Positions 17,340-54,330 of a stretch of 64,000 nucleotides of DNA are shown here, in pieces. The notes under the pieces were generated by a model. It was given only the letters and a program-made list of their open reading frames with translations. It was not told the DNA's origin and searched no databases. Within the stretch, counting starts at the first letter, position 1. Each line of letters begins with the position of its first letter. The translations under genes were made by a program, and so were the position numbers. Source of the stretch: Eledone cirrhosa (taxonomy: Eukaryota); assembly GCA_964016885.1 (NCBI GenBank), contig OZ024740.1, forward strand, positions 204,910,001 to 204,974,000, in the 5' to 3' direction.

Positions 17340-18244
17340 CACCATCAGAAAGTATGAAGAAGGATTTGTTTTATTTATTTTTTTTCATTTTTTGAAAGCT
17401 CTTTGCCACATACACAAGCCATTCAATCAATTTGTTTAAAACTTTGTATACAGTCCTTAGTGGCAAGACCAACAAGGGGCTCTCCTCATACTGTGGGGGT
17501 AGGGACGAAACAGAAATCAGGACTCACCATCTCAAGTTTTCAATACTAATGCTAAAAAAGTGACAGTTAAAAATTTATCTTTTTCTTCAATTTCCTGTTT
17601 AACGGGGACCCGATAAAGACTTATCTCGTCTAAACAGTTGCAATAAAAAAAAAAAAAAAAGTTTATCAATGACCCCAACCCAGAGTTAAAACCAGTATTT
17701 TTCTCGGAATTAGCACCTGTAAAAAGCCAGGTATGTGAGAGAGGTCAAGATGGAAGGCTGGTATTAAGGCGACCAACCACAGGTAGCACTGTTAAGGTGT
17801 GCCATCATTACTCAAAGGGATACTACTCTATCCCTAAAATTAAAAGTAACCTACAAGATAGAAAGTGAAGGTGGATGACAAAAATAAAAAATAAAGCAAA
17901 GTCATGATATTGTAAATCTGTAAACAATGAAAAGATAGCAAAAAGCTATGTATCTGTGATGAAAAGGTATGAGAAATAAAATAAGGAAACACTGGCAGGC
18001 AAGCCCCTAATTGCCGTGTCGTATTGGTTGTTGGCAGGGTATGGTTGGAGAAGAGGGAAGATAGAAGCCAACTAAATAATAATGCAAATCTACATGGAAA
18101 AATATATATGTATAGTAAATATATTATTGGTTTCACAACTAACTACTAATACTTAAGTATTGAAAACATCTTGTCAAGACAAAGACAAGGATGGAAGGAA
18201 AGGAAGAAAAAAAAAAAAAAAAAAAAACAATTAACAACTTATAA

Positions 18245-18250
18245 TTTATT
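18245..18250 (-). terminator. proximal polyadenylation signal of the prothymosin-like gene
   Basis: AATAAA on - strand ~130 nt after the stop, followed by a long U-rich tract. Confidence 0.5.
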
Positions 18251-18376
18251 GAGAACTCAAAAAAGATGATAGCAAATGATATGATCATTTATACATCTTA
18301 ATGAAATGCCAACTAAATTAGCCAGAAATGTGCTATAGAAAGTACACTGTTTATAGAGTGTTTATCTGGCCAGAAA

Positions 18377-18492
18377 TCATGACTCTGGGGCTACAGCTTC
18401 CTTTTCTTCAGTTTCTGTTTTTGATTTCTTTGATGGGCTGACATCGTCCCGTATGAAGTCATCTGGGGCTCTTTTGCGCGGGCTGATCACAT
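18377..18492 (-). CDS. coding exon 4 of the prothymosin-like gene (bipartite NLS and stop)
   Basis: cctcctcttcag acceptor, phase 1, D-VISPRKRAPDDFIRDDVSPSKKSKTETEEKEAVAPES then TGA. Confidence 0.88.
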
Positions 18493-20029
18493 CTGAAGAG
18501 GAGGAACAATAAGTCAAATAAACCCCTTAGTAGTAGCGAATGGAAGAAGTCAAGTAAAATAAAAACAATGATATATATATATATGGTGGCGGCAACGTTT
18601 TATTCGTGTTTGTGGCTATGGAGAAAGAGGAGCACACATACCACACACCATGGGTCAAAGGCTGAAAATACACAAAAAAAAAAAAAAAGGGAATATCTTC
18701 TCAAGTAAAACAGTAATAAAAGCAACTTACCATCTTCGTTCTCCTTCTCGTCATTTTCTTTGTTGTTCGTTTCTTCTTTGTTATCATTACAGTCCTCAGC
18801 TCCAGATTCAGATTTGTCGTTCGATTCAGAGTCCTCCGGCTGTTCAGAACTGTTCACTTTGGAGTCTTCCTTCTTGGCATCTTTCTCATCCTTTTTATCC
18901 TTTTTATCCTTTTTATCTTCCGCCTTGCTATCTTTAGCTTTCTTCTCGCTCTCCACCTGAAAACGGGGGTAAAAATTAATATAATCGGCTCATACACAAC
19001 AATAAAATATTTCAACAAATTTAAAAGAAATCAACATAAAAACCAAATCTTACTTCAGGTTTATCATCTACTTTCTTGACAACTGGAGTCTCAACTTCAG
19101 TCTCCTGGTCATTGGTCCTGAATAAAGTAAAATACTATAAAATAAGATCTATTGTCTATAAAAATCCATTCATCGCTAAAACTCTTTTGATGCTCTTAGC
19201 CATTAAAAAAAATCACTACCTACCACAGAAAGCTAGCAACAGATTATAAAAACCATAATTAGCAATCACTAATGAAATATAATAAACGAATTTAAATATC
19301 CGAATTGCAAAATACAGCTTTTGTCAGAAACGGAACCTATTTATTGAATGAGATCAACACTTGTATGTATATGGTTTTATTATAAACAAAAACAAGCCAA
19401 AAGACGAGGAAGAAAGAGACGTGAAAAGAGATTAGTATTTCAATGGTGGTGGCAGCGGTGGGGCAAGATAAAAGTTGCCGGCGAGGAAGGGGGAGTAGTG
19501 TAGAGTTAATGGAAGTAGGAGGCATGTGGTATGGCGGCGGAGGACAGGACCACTGCTTTGTGTAAAATGGAGCCGAGCACCAGTCAATAAAGTCAACGGT
19601 TGACTAAAGCCTTCTTTACACCATTCTATTCCTTTAGCCCTACTATTTTTTTCAAACATTCCCTTCCCTAGTCCTTTACCATTCAACCCCCCTCCCGCGC
19701 AGCTTAGGGAAAAAAGAACTGCTTTCAACATTTCCATCGATTAGGAGAGACGGACGGAGACACCAAGAAAACCGCTTTATTTTCCCTATAAAACCTAATA
19801 AAATGCGCTATGTGGATGACCGGCTTCAAGACCCCCCCTCCCCATTTATATATATTAAAAACCGCCCTGGTTCTATGATATACACTTTAGAATAATGGTC
19901 CATCTAAAATACCAGAATTTCTTCTAATGGCAATATTTTATTATATGATAATGAAAGGGCTAGTGAGATTAAAAAGTCCTCGCTAGAATGAAAGACTAGA
20001 AAGATAGACTCCGTTAAATGGAGCCACGG

Positions 20030-20061
<32 letters not shown>

Positions 20062-21153
20062 TTGGAACCGACCATGCCGTACCGACAAAGAAGAGTCAAC
20101 CTTTCTCACATTTTAAACAAATATTGGATTTTTAAAGAAACCTCTTTCACCGAAAATATTCTTAAGAACAAAATGCTTCAACATTTTTTCTTTATATGAA
20201 CCAGAACAAACAAAAATTATTCAAGATAAGATGAAGGCGATGCAAAAAGAGAAAATGGAAAAAAAATAAATATCGAAAATTATTGAATTTTAGCGATAAA
20301 AAACTTTAATTCAAGACAAAAACTAGAAATTCTATCGCAGTTGAACAAAAGAGCCAGCGACAATAGTAACAATAGAAGACAGGTAATATATACACACGCA
20401 TATGTATACACAATATATACGCACATACATATATAGTTTATATATATATATACACACACAAGTTTCGCAAGATAAACGAGCGGGGAATTTGGATATAAAA
20501 GATAATGGGAATTTTTCTTAAAATGTTAGAACCTCTTCTTTTTTTCGATAAACAAATGATTCGTTTTTTTTTCCTTTCAACCTGGAGGGGTAAAATAAAC
20601 ATTTAATGTGAAAAATTAACATATAGGAAAATATTTGCGGTTTTATCTTTCCTCTTTTGGAGTAATAAAATGAATGAAGAGAATGGTGACGAAAGATATC
20701 TGGAAAATTGATATAAACTGGTTTTAATTAACTAATGCTTTATAAAAATAAAATTCCATTAATATTTTAATATTTTTTTTAAGATAGCAATTTCTGAGGA
20801 TTCTATTGATTTACTTTAATAATTATAAAAATTTAAATATAGCATTACAAAATGTTTATATACAGCACAAAGAGGATATAATTTACGTGGTATTCTGAGA
20901 AAAAAAGATTAGATATAGTAATTTCTTTAAATTCTAGAGATTTGGAAAAATTTAAAGTATATATAACACAAAGGGAGGGCCGTTATTTAAGCGTTAATAG
21001 ATATAAAATTTACATGCCATAGGGAAAATCTGACTAAAGTGAAAAATTTTATGCTGAAAAAAAAGAAAGAAATCGAGATATTATAAGTATTTCATTGAAA
21101 TTTGAAGAAAAAAATCTTAAAAGAATTAATTTTTCTTACTTTGTGTCTGGCAT
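18377..21153 (-). CDS. 4-exon gene for a 139-aa acidic, intrinsically disordered, prothymosin-alpha/parathymosin-like nuclear protein; join(21153-21140,19117-19054,18956-18731,18492-18377)
   Basis: All three introns have GTAAG donors and (Y)nCAG acceptors. Phases 2/0/1 join into one 420-nt ORF: MPDTKTNDQETEVETPVVKKVDDKPEVESEKKAKDSKAEDKKDKKDKKDEKDAKKEDSKVNSSEQPEDSESNDKSESGAEDCNDNKEETNNKENDEKENEDDVISPRKRAPDDFIRDDVSPSKKSKTETEEKEAVAPES*. It has 47 D/E, 30 K/R and no W/Y/H/L. The gene model is well supported; the family assignment is less certain. Confidence 0.85.
18731..18956 (-). CDS. coding exon 3 of the prothymosin-like gene (K/D/E-rich tract)
   Basis: gttttcag acceptor, 226 nt open, GTAAGT donor; corresponds to the N-terminal part of track ORF 18600-18956. 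Confidence 0.9.
19054..19117 (-). CDS. coding exon 2 of the prothymosin-like gene
   Basis: tttattcag acceptor, 64 nt open (K-TNDQETEVETPVVKKVDDKPE), GTAAG donor. Confidence 0.85.
21140..21153 (-). CDS. coding exon 1 of the prothymosin-like gene (MPDT-K)
   Basis: ATG CCA GAC ACA AA followed by GTAAG donor at 21139; phase 2 matches exon 2. Confidence 0.75.
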
Positions 21154-21390
21154 ATTTGTGTTGAGTGTGTGGGTTTCCCTGTGTAAAAATAAGAACGAAC
21201 AGCAAAATGCCGGCGAGATATTTGAAATGCTACTTATCTCACTGAAAGCAGACGATCGACTAGATTTGGCACAGCTTCCCGCCAACCGTAGCTACCCCTT
21301 CCCTCCTCACTTGTCTGCTCTACGTTCATTGGTTGCTATTTTTCACATGCAGGTGGCAGCACCAAACCAACATCGGTCACGTGCACAACT
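21154..21390. promoter_or_regulatory. compact bidirectional promoter and 5'UTRs shared by the prothymosin-like gene and COMMD9
   Basis: 237 bp between divergent ATGs, locally GC/CpG-enriched. Motifs: CDE/CHR-like CGGCGA-gata-TTTGAA 21211-21226, Inr-like TCAGT (-) 21241-21245, E2F-like TTCCCGCC 21276-21283, inverted CCAAT 21328-21332, E-box GTCACGTG 21376-21383. Confidence 0.7.
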
Positions 21391-21438
21391 ATGGCGACCA
21401 CCAATCTACATTTCGAGGACTTGAAAATCTTACTACAG
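21391..21438 (+). CDS. COMMD9: COMM domain-containing protein 9, coding exon 1 (MATTNLHFEDLKILLQ)
   Basis: actATGG start context; resembles the human COMMD9 N-terminus MAALTAEHFAALQSLLK (recalled); phase-0 donor CAG|GTTTCC. Confidence 0.75.
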
Positions 21439-27609: not shown

Positions 27610-28640
27610 ATCATCATCATCATCATCATCATCGTTTAACATCCATATTCCACGCTTGCATGGGTTTGGACGGGAGTTTTCCCACTTGAGGCAAGAGTGG
27701 TTGTCTTGCTCGCATAGGACTGTCTGGCGGGTTTTCTACGGCTGGATGCCCTTCCTAACACCAACCACATTTACAGTGTGGAACTGGGAGGTTTTTACCG
27801 TGTTACCTACATGGCCACATTACAGTGTGGACTGTGTGTTTTTTTGTTGTGACACCTACACGACCTCATTTGTTTCGGGCTGGATGTTGTGGTACCAACA
27901 TAACTTTACATTGAAAGGGGTGGTGTGGATGGGGTGGGGGTAGTGGGACGGGGGTGTATTTTGTTAGAGGTGCCTACTGACTGTAGTAGGTTTCACTTTG
28001 TATTTAGGTAAGGCGGGTCTTCTCTGTTACTGAGTACCGCCAAAGGTCTCGGTCCAGTGACATTGTCTTGGAGAGGTGTAAGTGTGTGAGGTCGGAATTT
28101 ATCAAGTCGTCCCAGGTTTTTCTGGGTCTGCCTACTCCGTGGCTACCGTCTATTTTTATTGCCCTGCACTTTTTTATACAGCTGTCATCTTTCATGCGCA
28201 TCACGTGACCATACCAACGTAGCCTTCTCTCGAGTAAACAACATCTGATCCCTCTTATCTCTAATTTTTCCCTTAGTTCGTTTATGCTTTGCCGTTCACG
28301 TATATTACTATTACACATCCGGTGGAGCATGCAAGCTTCGTTCCTCTCCAGTCTGCGTATATCCTCTGCACACAATGCCCAGGTCTCACTGCCATGCAAC
28401 ATTGCTGTTCGTATGCAGGTATCATACAGCCTGCCTTTCATTTTTAGGGAGAACCCTTTAGCGGCTAATAGTGGTATAAGCTCTCTGAACTTTTTCCATC
28501 CAGTTCTAACTCTAGCTACTGTACTTTCAGAGCACCCTCCCCCACTGCTGATTTTGTCACCCAGGTAACGGAAGCTGTTCACTATTTCTATAGAACCATC
28601 TGTGCAATGGAATGAGCTAGTATTCTGTGGGCACTTGCTG
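27610..28640 (-). mobile_element. 5'-truncated RTE LINE with 3'UTR and (GAT)n tail
   Basis: Track ORF 28004-28582 (FRYLGD...LHGSETW...RLRWYGHVMRM...GRPRKTW). Confidence 0.9.
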
Positions 28641-29849
28641 CTAATATATGCAATATGTTTACTTAGGTTTCATGGCCTAACTGTATTTTCAACTCTGATA
28701 GAGTGCAAGACATTCTGCCATTCATTCATCAGGCAAAATCTAAATGGCTACTCATGATTGAGAAGAAATCAAGAATGTGAAGAAGTGAGTCCTGTTGTGT
28801 TACTTAGGTGTTGTATCTTCTTAAAGAAAAATATTAAGGAATGCCAAGAATGGGTTATTTATTAGACTGTGGGACATTCTCCCATATGCAAAGCATGTCC
28901 AATATTAACCCTTTGTTGCTGTATTCCCAATGAAACCCACTCTGTTGCAATTAATTTTTGAAGAATTTTGAGGCATTTATTAAAAATTGTTAATTATTTA
29001 ATTACTAAAACAGTAACTTCACATATGGTTTTTATATAAAAATATTGGAAGATTTTAATTTAAATAGAAAACCTTTAAAACAAGTGGGGTGTTTTTCATA
29101 GAACCAGGGGCTGTTACAAGTGGTTTGGTATCAAAAGGGTTAAATACTGTATAAAGAAGATATAAACATTGTTAAGGAAAGATTTATTATTTGTAATAAT
29201 CAATAATTGTTTCTGATTTAGGCCAACAATTTTGGAGGAAAAAGAAAGCCTCAGTGTATGACTGGTACTTTATTTTATCAACCTATGTAAGGATGAAAGG
29301 GAAAGCTAATCTCGGCGGGATTTGAACTCAGAATGTAAAGGGCCGTAACTCAATGCTGTCAACAATGTTCTCCGATGCTCTCTGATAACTGCCAATCAAC
29401 TGCCCTATTCTTTCTATTAATAATGATATCAAGTAGAACATGTACAACCAACAATATAAAACAATATAGAACATGTACAACCACATGATAAAACTTCCCT
29501 CATTTTTACCCCTCCTGCTTTTATACCCCACACCCGTTTGTGTTTTACTAATCTTTAACATTCTTTTGCTTTTCACTTAATTGTATGTACTTATAAACAT
29601 ATACATATGAAAAGAAACTTTCCATATATATATATTTGTATGTGTTAGTTAAGTGTGTAACTACAGTTACAGGCGGCATGCTGTTCAGAGCACTCGGTGT
29701 TGTTACAATGTCTGTCTCATGTTGGGTTGTATTCCAGAGTTAAGGCGGCTGTAGTGTGTAAATAAAGTCAGTGCTGCAGCATATGTACAAACTCTATTGG
29801 CATATTACAATTGTTTCAATATCAGGCACATGGCTTACAATTGTTTCAA

Positions 29850-37354: not shown

Positions 37355-37695
37355 CCCACACTGTAAAGTGGTCGTGTTGGTGTCACAACAAAAAGCATCC
37401 AATCCACACTGTTAAGTGGTTGTGTAGATGTCATGACAAAAAGCACCCAGTACACACTGTTAAGTGGTTGTGTAGATGCATGACAAAAAGCATCTAGTTC
37501 ACACTGTAAAGTGGTTGTGTAGGTGTCACAACAAAAAGCATCCAGTTCACACTGTAAAGTGGTCAGGATGGCAACACGCAAAAAGTGCCCATCCCACACT
37601 GTAGAGTGGTCGTGTAGGTGTCACGACAAAAAGCACCCAGTACTCACTGTAAATGAAGTTGGCATTAGGAAGGGCATCCAGCTGTAGAAACCACC
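37355..37695 (+). repeat. RTE/SINE 3' tail with ~7-8 tandem ~39-bp units
   Basis: cacactgtaaagtggttgtgtaggtgtcacgacaaaaagcacccag units ending in ggcattaggaagggcatccagctgtagaaa. Confidence 0.8.
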
Positions 37696-38429
37696 AATTC
37701 AGCTCCAGCAACACTGACCAGATCTAGTCAGTGAGTTCAATTGACATCGCATTGTATTCAGTACTGCAAGTAAGAGTACCTATGTCTCTTTTCGTTTGTT
37801 GGCCTTGACTTTCACCCTGTAAGGAAAGTAATGTAGCAAGGTTTTGTCTGGATTTGAAACCTGCCACTTTTAATCCCTTTTTGCATATTACTGAGAAAAG
37901 CAACTGACATCATTTAACCATTTAGTATTTAAACCAACCATATCTGGCCAGAATTCTCACCATAATTGGCTGCTCATACCAATGTTAAGGTATTATTCTC
38001 AAAATAAATAATATCAAAATCTTGTAGATTTGATATCATGTGAGATAATTATGAGGTAAAGCCTTTACTGTGAAAATATAGTAAATATAGAGTAATGTAA
38101 AGGGTTAAGGCCAGCCAATAAAATTGTTACAATCAAACCTGGATTTTAACAAAGAAATCATCAGATGAAATCTAGCCAATAAAATTCTGTATATAGCCAA
38201 ATTCCAAATGTTTAACATTGAGAACATCAAATGATGTCATTGCTCTGGTGAGCAGTGAAGTGTACATCTATGTCAATGTACAATATGCTATATTAAGTGA
38301 TATTAAAACAAAAAAATTAAGATGACCTAGATGACTAAGATGGCAGGGTGCCCTGATGCTGTGGGATCACTTTGGTTAGGTCATGTCACATCATCTTGCT
38401 CTACACAGCAAGAATTTATTTTAACATAC

Positions 38430-38832
38430 ATTACACTGTAAAGTAGTTGTGTAGGGGTCACGACAAAAAGTGTCCAGCACACTGTAAAATGGTCATGTAG
38501 GGTCATGACAAAAAGCACCAATCCACACTGTAAAGTTGTTGTTTAGGTATTATGACAAAAAACACCCAGTCTACACTGTAAAGTGGTTTAGGTATCATCA
38601 CAAAAAACACCCAGTCCACGCTGTAAAGTGGTTGTGTAGGTGTCAACAAAAAGCACCCAGCATTCACTGTAAATGAGGTTGGTGTTAGGAAAGGCATCCA
38701 ATTGGAGAAATCAAGCCAAAATCAGTTCTGTATGAGATTGACATGGTCACCTGACCTAGCATTGCTCACAATTGGATAACTCGTCTAATCCATGCCAGCG
38801 TGGAAAAATGTACATTAAACGGTGATGATGAT
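38430..38832 (+). repeat. RTE/SINE 3' tail with ~6 tandem units
   Basis: Same unit and terminal sequence, ends ggtgatgatgat. Confidence 0.8.
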
Positions 38833-39190: not shown

Positions 39191-42100
39191 TTTCCTCAAT
39201 GCAATTGCTTTAGTTTCAACACTGTCCCAGATCAAGTCCCATGCCAAACAAGTACAACTGTGGCTAAAAGGATATTCTTCCTTAATGTAAATTGCTTTAG
39301 TTTCAACACTGTCCCAGATCAAGTCACATGTCAAACAAGTACAACTGTGGCTAAAATGATATTCTTCCTTAATGTAAATTGCTTTAATTTCAACACTGTC
39401 CCAGATCAAGTCACTTGTCAAACAAGTACAACTGTGGCTAAAATGATATTCTTCCTCAATGCAATTGCTTTAGTTTCAACACTGTCCCAGATCAAGTCAC
39501 TTGTCAAACAAGTACAACTGTGGCTAAAATGATATTCTTCCTTAATGTAAATTGCTTTAGTTTCAACACTGTCCCAGATCAAGTCACTTGTCAAACAAGT
39601 ACAACTGTGGCTAAAATGATATTCTTCCTCAATGTAAATTGCTTTAGTTTCAACACTGTCCCAGATCAAGTCACTTGTCAAACAAGTACAACTGTGGCTA
39701 AAATGATATTCTTCCTCAATGTAAATTGCTTTAGTTTCAACACTGTCCCAGATCAAGTCACTTGTCAAACAAGTACAACTGTGGCTAAAATGATATTCTT
39801 CCTTAATGTAAATTGCTTTAGTTTCAACACTGTCCCAGATCAAGTCACATGTCAAACAAGTACAACTGTGGCTAAAATGATATTCTTCCTCAATGTAAAT
39901 TGCTTTAGTTTCAACACTGTCTCAGATCAAGTCACATGTCAAACAAGTACAACTGTGGCTAAAATGATATTCTTCCTCAATGTAAATTGCTTTAGTTTCA
40001 ACACTGTCCCAGATCAAGTCACTTGTCAAACAAGTACAACTGTGGCTAAAATGATATTCTTCCTTAATGTAAATTGCTTTAGTTTCAACACTGTCCCAGA
40101 TCAAGTCACTTGTCAAACAAGTACAACTGTGGCTAAAATGATATTCTTCCTTAATGTAAATTGCTTTAGTTTCAACACTGTCCCAGATCAAGTCACTTGT
40201 CAAACAAGTACAACTGTGGCTAAAATGATATTCTTCCTCAATGTAAATTGCTTTAGTTTCAACACTGTCCCAGATCAAGTCACTTGTCAAACAAGTACAA
40301 CTGTGGCTAAAATGATATTCTTCCTTAATGTAAATTGCTTTAGTTTCAACACTGTCCCAGATCAAGTCACTTGTCAAACAAGTACAACTGTGGCTAAAAT
40401 GATATTCTTCCTCAATGTAAATTGCTTTAGTTTCAACACTGTCCCAGATCAAGTCACATGTCAAACAAGTACAATTGTGGCTAAAATGATATTCTTCCTC
40501 AATGTAAATTGCTTTAGTTTCAACACTGTCCCAGATCAAGTCACTTGTCAAACAAGTACAACTGTGGCTAAAATGATATTCTTCCTTAATGTAAATTGCT
40601 TTAGTTTCAACACTGTCCCAGATCAAGTCACTTGTCAAACAAGTACAACTGTGGCTAAAATGATATTCTTCCTCAATGTAAATTGCTTTAGTTTCAACAC
40701 TGTCCCAGATCAAGTCACTTGTCAAACAAGTACAACTGTGGCTAAAATGATATTCTTCCTCAATGTAAATTGCTTTAGTTTCAAGACTGTCCTAGATCAA
40801 GTCACTTGTCAAACAAGTACAACTGTGGCTAAAATGATATTCTTCCTCAATGTAAATTGCTTTAGTTTCAACACTGTCCCAGATCAAGTCACATGTCAAA
40901 CAAGTACAATTGTGGCTAAAATGATATTCTTCCTCAATGTAAATTGCTTTAGTTTCAACACTGTCCCAGATCAAGTCACTTGTCAAACAAGTACAACTGT
41001 GGCTAAAATGATATTCTTCCTTAATGTAAATTGCTTTAGTTTCAAGACTGTCCCAGATCAAGTCACTTGTCAAACAAGTACAATTGTGGCTAAAATGATA
41101 TTCTTCCTCAATGTAAATTGCTTTAGTTTCAACACTGTCCCAGATCAAGTCACTTGTCAAACAAGTACAACTGTGGCTAAAATGATATTCTTCCTCAATG
41201 TAAATTGCTTTAGTTTCAACACTGTCCCAGATCAAGTCACTTGTCAAACAAGTACAACTGTGGCTAAAATGATATTCTTCCTCAATGTAAATTGCTTTAG
41301 TTTCAACACTGTCCCAGATCAAGTCACTTGTCAAACAAGTACAACTGTGGCTAAAATGATATTCTTCCTTAATGTAAATTGCTTTAGTTTCAACACTGTC
41401 CCAGATCAAGTCACTTGTCAAACAAGTACAACTGTGGCTAAAATGATATTCTTCCTTAATGTAAATTGCTTTAGTTTCAACACTGTCCCAGATCAAGTCA
41501 CTTGTCAAACAAGTACAACTGTGGCTAAAATGATATTCTTCCTCAATGTAAATTGCTTTAGTTTCAACACTGTCCCAGATCAAGTCACTTGTCAAACAAG
41601 TACAATTGTGGCTAAAATGATATTCTTCCTCAATGTAAATTGCTTTAGTTTCAACACTGTCCCAGATCAAGTCACATGTCAAACAAGTACAATTGTGGCT
41701 AAAATGATATTCTTCCTCAATGTAAATTGCTTTAGTTTCAACACTGTCCCAGATCAAGTCACTTGTCAAACAAGTACAACTGTGGCTAAAATGATATTCT
41801 TCCTTAATGTAAATTGCTTTAGTTTCAAGACTGTCCCAGATCAAGTCACTTGTCAAACAAGTACAATTGTGGCTAAAATGATATTCTTCCTCAATGTAAA
41901 TTGCTTTAGTTTCAACACTGTCCCAGATCAAGTCACTTGTCAAACAAGTACAACTGTGGCTAAAATGATATTCTTCCTCAATGTAAATTGCTTTAGTTTC
42001 AACACTGTCCCAGATCAAGTCACTTGTCAAACAAGTACAACTGTGGCTAAAATGATATTCTTCCTCAATGTAAATTGCTTTAGTTTCAACACTGTCCCAG

Positions 42101-42834
42101 ATCAAGTCACTTGTCAAACAAGTACAACTGTGGCTAAAATGATATTCTTCCTTAATGTAAATTGCTTTAGTTTCAACACTGTCCCAGATCAAGTCACTTG
42201 TCAAACAAGTACAACTGTGGCTAAAATGATATTCTTCCTCAATGTAAATTGCTTTAGTTTCAACACTGTCCCAGATCAAGTCACTTGTCAAACAAGTACA
42301 ATTGTGGCTAAAATGATATTCTTCCTCAATGTAAATTGCTTTAGTTTCAACACTGTCCCAGATCAAGTCACTTGTCAAACAAGTACAACTGTGGCTAAAA
42401 TGATATTCTTCCTTAATGTAAATTGCTTTAGTTTCAAGACTGTCCCAGATCAAGTCACTTGTCAAACAAGTACAACTGTGGCTAAAATGATATTCTTCCT
42501 CAATGTAAATTGCTTTAGTTTCAACACTGTCCCAGATCAAGTCACTTGTCAAACAAGTACAACTGTGGCTAAAATGATATTCTTCCTTAATGTAAATTGC
42601 TTTAGTTTCAACACTGTCCCAGATCAAGTCACTTGTCAAACAAGTACAACTGTGGCTAAAATGATATTCTTCCTTAATGTAAATTGCTTTAGTTTCAACA
42701 CTGTCCCAGATCAAGTCACTTGTCAAACAAGTACAATTGTGGCTAAAATGATATTCTTCCTCAATGTAAATTGCTTTAGTTTCAACACTGTCTCAGATCA
42801 AGTCACTTGCCAAACAAGTACAACTGTGGCTGAA
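39191..42834. repeat. tandem array of ~42 near-identical 87-bp units in COMMD9 intron 1
   Basis: Unit atgatattcttcct(c/t)aatgtaaattgctttagtttcaacactgtcccagatcaagtcac(t/a)tgtcaaacaagtacaactgtggctaaa; 38 full units 39529-42834 plus ~4 more divergent units at the left edge. Confidence 0.98.
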
Positions 42835-43080
42835 ATTTAAGAGCTTCTGCCAAGTTATCAAATACCCAAGGGACAGTTGTTACATGTTGCCTATATTTTG
42901 CTCTATATTTCAATAAAGTGTTGATTAAAATTTCCATTACATCTTTTACAAATGAAGTTTATTGTCATAATGATAATTTCTAAATAACATTGATAGTTTT
43001 TCTCTGACTTTCAATATTGATCTCACACTCTCTTTCTCTCTCTTTTTTCTTTTCCTCCCCTCCCTCTCTCTCTCATACAG

Positions 43081-43209
43081 AGTCCTAACAAAGATATAGT
43101 GGTGAGAATTTGTAATGATATCGTGAAATTTTCTGGACTTGGATCAACTGAGCCACAATTAAAATTCATCTGTAATTCACTTAAAGTAGAGAAAGAAGAC
43201 AGTGAAAAA
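43081..43209 (+). CDS. COMMD9: COMM domain-containing protein 9, coding exon 2 (SPNKDIVVRICNDIVKFSGLGSTEPQLKFICNSLKVEKEDSEK)
   Basis: ~55-nt polypyrimidine tract + CAG acceptor, 129 nt open in phase 0/0, GTAAGT donor. Aligns by eye to human ASSKDVVRQLCQESFSSSALGLKKLLDVTCSSLSVTQEEAEE. Later exons not found in the window. Confidence 0.8.
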
Positions 43210-50117: not shown

Positions 50118-51615
50118 CTTAGTCTTAGGTTCTTCGGTCACGATCAGCGGCAGCTTTTCGCGTCCGTGTCAAGTGATGTTGGCTACCATCAGGTCTTTTC
50201 GGGACGTTCGGCGCCAGGTGATCCTGGGGCAACCCCGCCTCTGTTTGCCGCCAAGTGGAGTCCAGTTCATTGTTGTTTTCTAGTGTTCATCGGGCAGGCG
50301 CAAAATATGACCAGCCAGGCGGCACCACCGCTCTGTAACCATCCTCTGTAGCGTCCACGACTTGGTTCTCCGCAGGATTTCCTCGTTTCGCATTTGGCCG
50401 TGCCAGGACACCCGAAGGATCATTCGCAGGCACCACTGGTGGAAAGCATTCAGCCGTCTCTCTATCTTTGCTGTGTTCTTCCAGGTTTCGCGTGCTTAAA
50501 GCATTGTCGGTAGCACGATGCTCTTATATAGGCACAGCTTGATCCTGGGGCTGAATCATGAAGACAACCAGACTGGGTGTAACCGCTGGAAAACTGCGGC
50601 TCCTTTGCCGATCCGACAGTTGATGTCAAGTTCTGCGTTGCCATTGCTTGCTAGGATGCTGCCCAGATAGGTGAAGTGATCGACTTCCTCTAGGTCTTGT
50701 TAGTTGACTCTGATCGCTGGACCTGTGTTGTTGGCTGTTCTCATCACCTTGGTCTTTTTGGTATTGATTCTCAGACCGATCTTTTCTGCACTCTCTTGCA
50801 GAGATGTTGTTAAGGCTTGCAGATCTGCACTGTCTTTAGCGATCAAAGCGATGTCGTCGGCGAATGCCACGCTCTTCAGCCTCGACTGGCCTCTCCATGG
50901 GATTCCTTGACCGGGTCCTTCCTCTGTTCGCATTAGCACAAAATCGGCTGCCAACAGGAACAACAACGGAGAGATAATGTAACCCTGTCTGACTCCGGAG
51001 ACAATGTCAAAGAGCTCTGTCACACCAGACTCAGTTCGCACGCAGCAGCTGGAGTTTGCGAACAAGGCCTTGAAAATGGCGATGAATCTTGCAGGAATGC
51101 CGTACGAGTGCGCAATATTCCACAGCGATTCCCGATTCACACTGTCGAATGCTTTCTGGAAATCAATGAAATTGACCGCCAAAGGGTGCTGGAGCTCAAC
51201 GCATTGTTCGAGGATGTTGCGTAACGTGAAGATCTGTTCGGTGCAAGATCGATTGTTTCGGAAGCTAGCTTGTTCCTCCTGGAACACAGAGTCGACAGCT
51301 TGCCGGAGTCGACGCAGCAGCACGGTGCAGAATGCCTTGCCTGGGACTGACAGCAATGTGATACCGCACCAGTTGTTACAGTTGACCAGGTTTCCCTTCT
51401 TCAGCAGTTTGATGATGACACTCCATTGCCACTCAAGAGGAACTTGACCAACACTCCAACAGTGGTCCATCAAGTTTGTCAACGCTGTTATCATGCTATC
51501 CCCACCAAATTTTAGCAACACTATAGAGATCTCATCCAGTCTGCCTGCTTTGCCATACCTCAAGTCACTGATCCCATCTCTCTCGTCTCCTGCTTGGTGA
51601 TTTGGTCCTCGCAGA
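50118..51615 (-). mobile_element. 3' part (RT to 3' end) of the second RTE-family LINE
   Basis: Track ORF 50700-51680: KKGNL..CNNW.GITLLS, FIDFQKAFDSV, GVRQG.I.SPLLF, FADDIAL; ends gaacctaagactaag. Confidence 0.9.
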
Positions 51616-51779
51616 CCTTGAGTAATCCAACTTATTTTACAAACGGGATAAAATAATATATTCTGGACGCAGTCCTGCACTCCTTACTTTATTATAGTTT
51701 TTATATATATATAAATTGCATTTCGCTCATTTCTACCCACGATTCTCGCTGAATTTATATTTATCAGCGACCTCACAGT

Positions 51780-54330
51780 CAGAACTAGATGAACCTGGAA
51801 ACAGAAGCCAACCTGGAGAAGAAAGATCTGGAAGCTGAAAGACCCCTCAGCCAGTAACAGATTTAAAGATATTTTACTCAACGTCTATGACAGTAAAGAA
51901 GAACAGATACAGACATTCAATGTAGAAGAGCACTGGGAGTTCATAAAAAATAACTTACTAAAGGCGACAGATGAGATCTGTGGCTGGAGTAAGACCACAG
52001 GCAGGAGGAGAGTGACTTGGTGGTGGAACAATAAGGTAGATGAGGCAGTTAAGGCCAAAAGAGACAGGCATAGAAAGAATGGAAGAACGGGGGAAGCAGG
52101 GTACATTACATAGAGACCAGGAGGGAAGCTAGGCGACAAGTATACTTAGCTAGGAGGGAAGCAGAGGATAGAAAATTCAAGCATGTTTTGCAACGTGAGG
52201 ACCAGAAACAGGAGGTGTTCAAGATTACAAGGCAGTGTGTCAGAGAGAATTGTGATGTCATTGGAGAGAAGTGTATCCAGAATGATAAAGGTGAGCTTGC
52301 CCTCACAAGTGCTGAGAAGAAAGATGCGTGGAAGAGCCATTATGATACATTACTAAATGAGGAGAATGCGTGGGAAGAAGCGACCCTACTGCAAGTAGAA
52401 CCTATAGAGGGGCCAGCAGTACAAGTCAGCAGCAGCATAGTAAGTAAGGCAATCAAAGATATGAAGACAGGGAAGGCAACCGGTCCATCGGGTATAGCTG
52501 CCGAGATGTTGAAGGCATCTGGGTCGGTAGGTCACACCATAACCACACGTATTGTTAACCAGGTAATACTAGGTGCCATACCAAAGGATTGGTGCAGAAG
52601 CATCATTGTCAACTGCTACAAAGGTAAAGGTGATGCACTAGATAGAGGAAACTATAGAGGTATAAAGCTGATGGACCAGTCATGAAAGTAACAGAAAGAG
52701 TTATAGCACAGTTGATTAGGGACCGGGTGAAACTAGATGAGATGCAATTTGGGTTTGTTCCAGGAAGAGGTACCACTGATGCCCTCTTCCTTGTGAGGCA
52801 GTTACAGAAAAAGTACCTAGCTAAAAGTAAGCTGCTCTACCTGGCATTCGTCGATCTCGAGAAAGCCTTTGACAGAGTTCTCCGTGCTGTAATCTGGTGG
52901 GCTCTTAGAAAACTAGGAGTAGATGAATGGCTTGTGAAAGCTGTACAAGCCATGTACAGGGGAGCAGTCAGCAAAGTTAGGATTAGCAATGACTATAGCG
53001 AGGAATTTAGTGTACAGGTAGGTGTCCACCAGGTCTCTGTTCTTAGCCCTCTCCTGTTCATCATAGTTCTGCAGGCAATAATGGAGGAGGTTAAGACCGG
53101 ATGCCCATGGGGACTCCTGTATGCAGATAACCTCGTACTTATAGCTGAATCTATGGTAGAACTAGAGAAGAAATTCCAAACTTGGAAGCAGGGACTAGAA
53201 AGAAAGGGTCTCAGGGTCAACCTGACAAAGACTAAGGTCTTTGTAAGTAGACGAGAAAACAGAACCCAGATCCCCTCAGGGAAATGGCCTTCCTCAGTGT
53301 GTAGGAAAGTGTAGATAGGAACTCCATTCTCTGCCCCAAATGCAAACAATGGGTACACAAGAGATATAGCGGGATCTCAGGAAGCTTAACTAAGAATGTA
53401 GGCTTCACATGTAGCAGCTGTGCTGGGAGAGCAAGTAGCAAACAGCCACAGGAAACAAGTATCACCAAACTCTGGGAGGGCTCTGTACAAACAGTAGACA
53501 GCTTCTGCTACCTAGATGACCGAATTAGCCGCGGAGGTGGGTGTTCGGAAAGTACAATAACTATGGTAAGAACAGCATGGAAGAAGTTCAGGGAGCTACT
53601 GCCACTGCTAGCTGCAAAAGGCTTTTTCCTCAAAATGAAAGGCAGACTGTATGATGCATGTATACGAACAGCAATGTTACATGGTAGTGAGACCTGGGCA
53701 CTGTCTGTGGAAGACTTGCGTAGATTAGAAAGAAATGAAGCCTGCATGCTCCGATGGATGTGTAATAGTAATATACGCGAACGGCAAAGTATAAATGAAT
53801 TGAGAGAGAGACTGAGCATAAGAGGAATAAAATGCTGTGTGCAGGAGAGGCGGTTGCGTTGGTATGGATATGTGATGCATATGAAGTATGACAGCTGTAT
53901 AAAAAGGTGCAGAACACTAGAAGTCGATGGAAACCGCGGAGTGGGGAGACCCAAGAAGACCTGGGATGATGTGATAAAAGCCGACCTCACCCAATTACCT
54001 CTCAAAGGCGTTGACACACGATCGTGACCTCTGGCGTCACGCATACAGAAGACCCGACCCCCCACGGGTACAAGCCGAAGCTGAAGCATATAGACAATAT
54101 GCCCCCACACACCCTCCCACTGCAAACTGGTCGTGGAGGTGCCACAGCAAAAAAGCACCCAGCTCACACTGTAAAGTGGACGTGTAGGCGCCACGGAAAA
54201 AAAAGCACCCAGCACTCACTGTAAATGAGGTTGGTGTTAGGAAGGGCATCCAGCTGTAGAAATCAAGCCAGAATCATTTCCCGTTCCACCCTTGCAAGCA
54301 GGGAAAAGCGGACGTAAAATGATGATGATG
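51780..54330 (+). mobile_element. longest RTE LINE copy (linker + RT + Cys-rich insert + 3'UTR), frameshifted
   Basis: Track ORFs 52188-52685, 52682-53314, 53563-54027 (FVDLEKAFD, YADNL, GRPKKTW); (GAT)n tail. Confidence 0.95.

Follow-up and report, generated by a model that had tools for sequence, protein, structure and literature searches.

Does a cephalopod encode a counterpart of prothymosin, the disordered linker-histone chaperone usually described as vertebrate? The question is raised by a minus-strand gene at positions 18,377 to 21,153 of a 64,000-nucleotide stretch of the Eledone cirrhosa genome (contig OZ024740.1; the whole stretch is called the window here, and coordinates are positions within it). 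A preliminary description of this DNA took the product to be a distant homologue or convergent analogue of prothymosin-alpha. We find that the gene is real. It has no name as yet, and its moderately acidic product, probably a disordered protein of the nucleus, fits Drosophila Df31 (Decondensation factor 31, Anon1A4) at least as well as prothymosin and may connect the two in one old family. Our preferred reading, to which we assign a probability of about 0.5, is that the protein would act as a charge-based chaperone of histone tails or linker histone that loosens chromatin, and would share distant descent with both Df31 and prothymosin.

Gene structure, transcription and product

The gene has four exons, every intron is bounded by GT and AG, and the three introns (phases 2, 0 and 1) join a frame of 139 residues. 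Its features are as follows; X4 is a public sequencing run and P0005 an unnamed relative, both discussed below.

21140..21153, minus strand: coding part of exon 1 (14 nt), with the ATG and a phase-2 donor; the N-terminus is like that of P0005
19118..21139, minus strand: intron 1 (2022 nt), phase 2, GT-AG; its 3' part is unspliced in the X4 contig
19054..19117, minus strand: exon 2 (64 nt); residues 14-21 (19092-19069) are 7/8 like Df31 residues 10-17
18957..19053, minus strand: intron 2 (97 nt), phase 0; skipped by the X4 contig
18731..18956, minus strand: exon 3 (226 nt); a Lys/Asp-rich segment (residues 31-58), then an acidic segment
18493..18730, minus strand: intron 3 (238 nt), phase 1; skipped by the X4 contig
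18377..18492, minus strand: coding part of exon 4 including the TGA stop (116 nt); 70-73% identical to three unnamed proteins
18416..18484, minus strand: predicted bipartite nuclear localisation signal (K108-R109, a 13-residue linker, K123-K126), with cyclin-dependent kinase (CDK)-consensus sites at S105 and S120
18245..18250, minus strand: AATAAA, likely proximal polyadenylation signal; the X4 contig would stop near 18239 if colinear
21241..21245, minus strand: Initiator-like TCAGT, a possible transcription start about 90 nt 5' of the ATG, by motif match alone

The product contains 47 acidic (D/E) residues in 139 (33.8%) and 30 basic (K/R) ones, for a net charge of -17 and a predicted isoelectric point of 4.5. 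Trp, Tyr, His and Leu are absent, and Phe and Cys occur once each. On recomputation, every number in the preliminary description (four exons, 139 residues, 34% D/E, net charge of about -17, no W/Y/H/L) proved right. The protein does not end at the KKxKT-type motif, as had been said, since 11 residues (129-139) still follow. The acidic segment of exon 3 carries a net charge of -14 across residues 60-103, and a 9-bp repeat lies at 18888-18917 within the Lys/Asp-rich segment. A simple consensus count places the splice donors among the best 0.5-17% of GT dinucleotides on the same strand and the acceptors among the best 0.6-8% of AG dinucleotides.

Four public runs of one study, X1-X4, were compared with the locus across 18260-19500, that is, without exon 1. 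One 1261-nt contig of X4 omits exactly 238 and 97 bases, corresponding to introns 3 and 2; runs X1-X3 read through the region unspliced. None of the four runs is recorded as RNA, and the kind of X4 library is not on record; we treat X4 as RNA solely since its contig lacks two introns bounded by GT and AG. The depth of such contigs is no guide to the level of expression. The gene is transcribed and spliced. The X4 contig continues into intron 1, so the junction between exons 1 and 2 lies outside the spliced support; of the junctions whose confirmation by RNA had been proposed, those across introns 2 and 3 are seen in X4 and the first is unseen. Exon 1 is nevertheless supported, because it contains the sole in-frame ATG, encoding the protein's only Met, and because the first 26 residues align with the beginning of spliced P0005 and there outscore all 5000 shuffles. 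A start inside intron 1 for this protein was considered and rejected: there is an in-frame stop just 5' of exon 2, and no ATG in the intron reaches that exon. Entry of the X4 contig into intron 1 could reflect a retained intron or a second, non-coding start. If colinear, the contig would end near 19834, beside a TATA-like match at 19854 (in the interval 19500-19860). At the other end of the gene, support for the polyadenylation signal is weak because a homopolymer run just past it could equally end a contig. The Initiator-like motif has 68 matches on the minus strand of the window.

Relatives and the conserved import signal

A HMMER search with exon 4 against 1.84 billion representative sequences returned three matches at E<=0.001, each 70-73% identical. 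A profile search added four relatives from 7999 scored candidates, and one cluster gave two further members. None of the relatives has a name, and we infer that they come from cephalopods. Read from its second Met, P0005 is identical to the window protein at 68 of 105 places, exon 1 included, with an alignment score of 261 against a maximum of 110.5 for 1000 shuffles; by this alignment it reads as the spliced form. In another relative, P0008, exon 3 seems to start and stop at the same places.

Conservation is uneven along the chain. It is highest over the signal, which consists of S-P-R-K-R, then 13 linker residues that include DD and S-P-S, and finally K-K-x-K-T; the stretch preceding this signal is also well conserved. 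The pattern KR-x13-KKxKT, with S-P-x-K at both halves, is kept in relatives P0003, P0004 and P0005, which bears out the C-terminal motif of the preliminary description, though not in every residue: the Ala after KR becomes Gly, and the Val of DDV becomes Met or Ile. P0005 lacks most of the Lys/Asp-rich segment, and the richness in Lys that the preliminary description noted in comparison with vertebrate prothymosin-alpha is therefore in part a local expansion; the lower acidity that it noted is seen in the net charge (-17 vs -44). Net charge hardly changes with length: it is -17 at 139 residues, -18 at 105 and -18 at 102.

Four relatives (P0006, P0007, P0010 and P0011) read straight across the intron-3 junction, but their signal motif is damaged, the N-terminus is gone and the ends have changed; these sequences look like processed pseudogenes of another species. 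No copies of this type were found in the gene's own genome by DNA and protein searches with exon 4. Paralogues were sought in the same genome with the DNA of exon 4, with its translation and with P0005; this locus alone came back at meaningful scores, and the gene is single-copy there. Additional searches added little. A word search with exon 4 among proteins of 71-2000 residues yielded none from 19 candidates and is insensitive, because it missed the existing P0004 and P0005; the same kind of search with P0005 residues 34-138 recovered two relatives among 143 candidates, both previously known. No related locus was found among pattern matches in metagenome contigs (0/592 and 0/594) or viral contigs (0/11).

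Df31, prothymosin and the competing readings

Which known protein does the product resemble? The sequence of Df31 is printed in PMC4822317, and a hand count of it gives a net charge of -30 over 183 residues, or -0.16 per residue. The window protein and its relatives carry -0.12 to -0.18 per residue, in comparison with -0.40 for prothymosin, and share with Df31 a moderate acidity without long acidic runs. According to PMC3547006 and PMC12309367, Df31 is disordered, binds histone H3 tails and small nucleolar RNA, and decondenses sperm chromatin. Similarities of sequence include the N-terminal 7/8 motif (Df31 residues 10-17, residues 14-21 here), a KR followed by [ST]P-x-KKxK near the C-terminus, and ENG motifs; Df31 is, besides, acidic, disordered and nuclear, as is predicted for the product here. 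There are also differences: Df31 has 183 residues and is Ala-rich (39 Ala vs 7 here), its signal linker is longer, and its signal has one CDK-type site rather than two. Df31 fits at least as well as prothymosin, and its charge fits better. A further Df31-like run in the Lys/Asp-rich segment was dropped because it is of low complexity and missing from P0005.

Prothymosin shares much of the same plan. It too is small, acidic and nearly devoid of aromatic residues, it has a KR...KKxKT signal with DD ahead of the second basic cluster, and it contains an ENG motif, which is present in the relatives. The human C-terminus quoted in the preliminary description agrees with the sequence given in the PMC7661507 supplement. 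In detail, the signal linker has 13 residues here and 12 in prothymosin, the printed prothymosin sequence lacks the two S-P-x-K sites that are conserved here, and the tail is 11 residues longer. Prothymosin has neither Cys nor aromatic residues; the window protein has one Phe and one Cys, P0004 has one Cys, and residues 34-138 of P0005 have none. The introns agree in part. Human prothymosin has five coding exons, with intron phases 0, 0, 1 and 0, whereas the four coding exons here are separated by phases 2, 0 and 1; the order of phase 0 then phase 1 before the signal would agree, but the first intron and the human intron within the signal would not. Other chromatin proteins share some elements: in the acidic histone chaperones nucleoplasmin and N1/N2-NASP, acidic tracts occur together with a bipartite import signal at the C-terminus, and HMGN proteins have ENG-type motifs. 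Nucleoplasmin and NASP have folded cores, whereas there is none here, and scans of single exons and of P0003-P0005 gave no match to the HMGN or nucleoplasmin Pfam families.

By analogy, the protein is likely to serve in the nucleus as a disordered chaperone of chromatin whose import signal bears CDK-type sites; for descent from a prothymosin/Df31 ancestor we see about even odds. Such a chaperone might work as follows. Importin-alpha would take the protein into the nucleus via the bipartite signal. CDK phosphorylation at S105 and S120 could then tune import or add negative charge during the cell cycle. In the nucleus, the acidic middle (residues 60-103) would bind basic histone tails non-specifically, by counterion release. 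Linker histone H1 would presumably be bound more weakly than by prothymosin, since each residue carries, on average, a charge of -0.12 to -0.18 rather than -0.40. That the protein works like Df31 or prothymosin at all is suggested by these analogies.

Several results weigh against this reading. First, the Pfam prothymosin family PF03247 (cut-off 23.9 bits) gives no match at E<=10 to exons 2, 3 and 4 taken singly or to P0003-P0005, so the Pfam check proposed earlier did not support a link, with the proviso that HMMER filters penalise biased sequence and that P0005 stood in for the whole spliced protein. Nor is PF03247 among the first 25 of 33 families listed for 11 members of the set of proteins designated A3. 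Second, full HMMER and word searches recovered just seven close relatives; proteins of vertebrates or arthropods were not reached. Third, the neighbourhood differs. Vertebrate prothymosin and parathymosin loci neighbour COPS7 and PDE6D, but COPS7 lies on contig C12 of this genome and the PDE6D/UNC119 family on C22 and C2, whereas our gene is on C1 beside COMMD9; the linkage test is weak because coleoid genomes are rearranged. Fourth, prothymosin and Df31 were compared by eye, through short motifs and residue counts; the count for prothymosin included one surplus Glu (111 for 110 residues), with no effect on the conclusions. For a 7/8 match such as that with Df31 near both N-termini, the expectation is 0.02 over all pairs of sequence windows and 0.0005 within the first 30 residues, but P0005 without gaps retains no more than 4/8, and the C-terminal tails of P0004 and P0005 match prothymosin's N-terminal region at 7/8 places out of register, which indicates that such matches arise in E/K/V-rich proteins. 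Finally, the case for disorder is qualified. The AlphaFold2 model of P0005 has a mean predicted local distance difference test score of 53 and no secondary structure save one 3-residue turn, although a low score from an 11-row alignment is weak evidence of disorder. In terms of charge and hydropathy the chain is well past the dividing line, on the unfolded side (0.27 vs 0.46), PDB sequence searches gave chance matches alone, and full intrinsic disorder is what we predict from such models.

The ESM Atlas gives a lead towards prothymosin, and it too is qualified. For residues 34-138 of P0005, the best three of 30 hits are clusters bearing PF03247, with 173-177 shared features and a score of 0.86, which lies below 0.9 and is a lead only, given that a third of shuffled proteins reach 0.8 or ten agreeing hits and that the thresholds are not calibrated on partial proteins. 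These clusters are one of mostly arthropod proteins (PF03247 on 43% of 70 members), one of parathymosin (85% of 62) and one of fish-named proteins (98% of 103); the fourth hit is an unnamed arthropod cluster, and the ten best family-bearing hits all agree. Exon 4 alone gave no usable hit. The arthropod cluster, named 'prothymosin alpha family protein' (132 residues), is the best hit, of similar length and invertebrate, but its name is automatic, and the window protein lacks the PF03247 match that 43% of its members carry. Its existence does soften the view of prothymosin as a vertebrate protein from which we began.

Convergence is the most probable alternative, though less probable than our preferred reading. 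On this account, the gene would encode an acidic disordered nuclear protein of the mollusc lineage, alike because small D/E/K-rich chains with a C-terminal signal look similar, and it might still chaperone histones. The missing profile or pairwise link to prothymosin, the unshared COPS7 and PDE6D neighbours and the out-of-register 7/8 match all favour it, and Atlas features can track composition. Motif statistics cut both ways, and their patterns were chosen after the sequences were seen. Among 200,000 shuffles of the window protein, 2987 (1.5%) already contain the bipartite pattern, which favours convergence; of the 2987, however, only 152 also have the final T and 12 have DD too, and it is this combination of DD and terminal T by the second basic cluster that is conserved and common with prothymosin. 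The Df31-type [ST]P-x-KKxK pattern, in 63 shuffles, likewise speaks for a link. Convergence also leaves unexplained why all three proteins have the same order of parts, namely an N-terminal VV-E/K motif, an acidic middle (with ENG in the relatives), a C-terminal signal and a short acidic tail. The either-or of homologue and analogue with which the preliminary description ended stands: the checks on splicing and on motif conservation supported that description and the Pfam check did not, and Df31, which it did not name, is a further comparison.

Could the gene instead be the one-to-one counterpart of vertebrate prothymosin-alpha, binding H1 at picomolar to nanomolar affinity and stripping it from nucleosomes? 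By eye, the signal region agrees with that of human prothymosin at about 11 of 20 places; P0005, numbered from its second Met, has residues 15-22 in agreement with prothymosin residues 19-26 at 6/8, and the Atlas hits carry PF03247. Scanning the animal's own genome with the PF03247 profile produced no rival candidate, a result that is uninformative as the control was equally silent. We nonetheless consider a strict counterpart improbable. Human prothymosin has a net charge of -44 (PMC7661507) and almost 50% D/E (PMC9496091), with a central poly-acidic tract; the window protein and its relatives have 34-36% D/E, a net charge of -17 or -18, a longest D/E run of 3-4 and no such tract. PMC10576128 attributes H1 binding by prothymosin to counterion release between large opposite charges, and PMC11971343 reports that affinity alters with net charge and with clustering on the globular domain of H1. 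Because the charge here is 40% of prothymosin's and evenly spread, the picomolar mechanism does not transfer directly. The conserved CDK-type sites, missing from the printed prothymosin sequence, also argue against equivalence. We do not file the protein as a prothymosin member because it has no PF03247 match, a low charge and no poly-acidic tract, and because COPS7 and PDE6D lie elsewhere.

The protein might also be nuclear and disordered yet have a job other than chaperoning, for example as an importin-alpha decoy or a cell-cycle-gated cargo whose acidic chain is a soluble spacer. It is the import signal with its CDK-type sites that is conserved best, not the acidic middle, and well-mixed charges (kappa 0.13-0.15) weaken polyanion behaviour; but a net charge held at -17 or -18 across different lengths, together with the conserved stretch before the signal, makes this quite improbable. 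That the locus is a non-coding transcript with chance frames, as the nameless relatives and the exon 1 junction unseen in RNA might suggest, is scarcely credible given a frame maintained over two spliced junctions and the 68/105 identity to spliced P0005.

Genomic setting and significance

The gene and COMMD9 lie head-to-head on a short CpG-rich promoter, an arrangement we deduce because COMMD9-matching exons follow the plus-strand ATG. Their start codons are 238 bases apart.

21391..21438, plus strand: COMMD9 exon 1 (16 codons, phase 0), assigned by length and phase, with no direct COMMD9 match
21250..21390, no strand: putative CpG-rich promoter shared by COMMD9 and the gene described here; CCAAT box at 21328-21332, E-box at 21378-21383

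The next COMMD9 exon (43081-43209, plus strand, 43 codons) aligns from its third codon with human COMMD9 residues 20-58 at E 0.2-0.3, a later exon matches at E 4e-12, and exons just past the window (L005:1177-7456, plus strand) also match, so that COMMD9 spans about 50 kb. The shared promoter has a GC content of 0.44 and an observed/expected CpG ratio of 0.91, compared with 0.41 for the window. Its E-box, CACGTG, is one of four in the window and may be there by chance; mammalian prothymosin is reportedly c-myc-regulated, to go by a study title. Within intron 1 of COMMD9, at 39192-42836, 42 copies of an 87-bp unit (97% identity) form an array that ends 245 bases before exon 2, and the long open frames on both strands of this array are likely repeat by-products. 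Repeat families of 45-50 bp occupy 37356-38681, and broken copies of LINE (long interspersed nuclear element) retrotransposons lie at 50703-54027 and 28004-28669 and also in L003 and L004, with reverse-transcriptase matches in the two frames tested. A weak THAP-domain match at L006:9395-9805 (minus strand, E 1.4) is possibly a THAP gene or a remnant of a P-element-type transposon.

The genome itself is cephalopod-like, as the preliminary description had it. It contains 39 matches to the molluscan haemocyanin domain PF14830, representing five genes of seven intact units plus two further matches, and seven is the octopod-type count of haemocyanin units. Stop-ridden remnants of an eighth unit lie between intact units at C26:21939424-21939696 and 22009706-22009960, in two oppositely oriented genes; three genes on C1 are without such a remnant.

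The complex of prothymosin with H1 is a model for fully disordered, high-affinity binding, and the origin of prothymosin is rarely addressed; the accessible parts of PMC9873970, PMC4774093, PMC3745453 and PMC9102069 hold nothing on it. We found no paper in the open literature that treats Df31 and prothymosin together (most subscription papers, including the original Df31 studies, were outside this search), and a search there for prothymosin and molluscs gave off-topic papers only, judged by their listings. A 2023 study, cited in PMC10675086, is said, by its title, to be the first detection of prothymosin in mussel sperm. That title, and the arthropod proteins that already carry the prothymosin label, lessen the surprise of a molluscan relative.

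More broadly, we tentatively suggest, at somewhat less than even odds, that prothymosin and parathymosin, Df31, the arthropod PF03247 proteins and the cephalopod gene form one family that was already present in the last common ancestor of all bilaterians. Its founding member would have been moderately acidic with a CDK-gated import signal, and the extreme acidity that underlies picomolar H1 binding would be a vertebrate specialisation. If so, Df31 would be the fly's unrecognised prothymosin, and fly genetics on Df31 could inform prothymosin biology. One architecture occurring naturally at net charges of -17, -30 and -44 would also be a direct test of how charge sets histone preference and affinity. 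If the likeness is instead convergent, this would still be an unnamed, conserved and spliced cephalopod gene that profile searches have overlooked.

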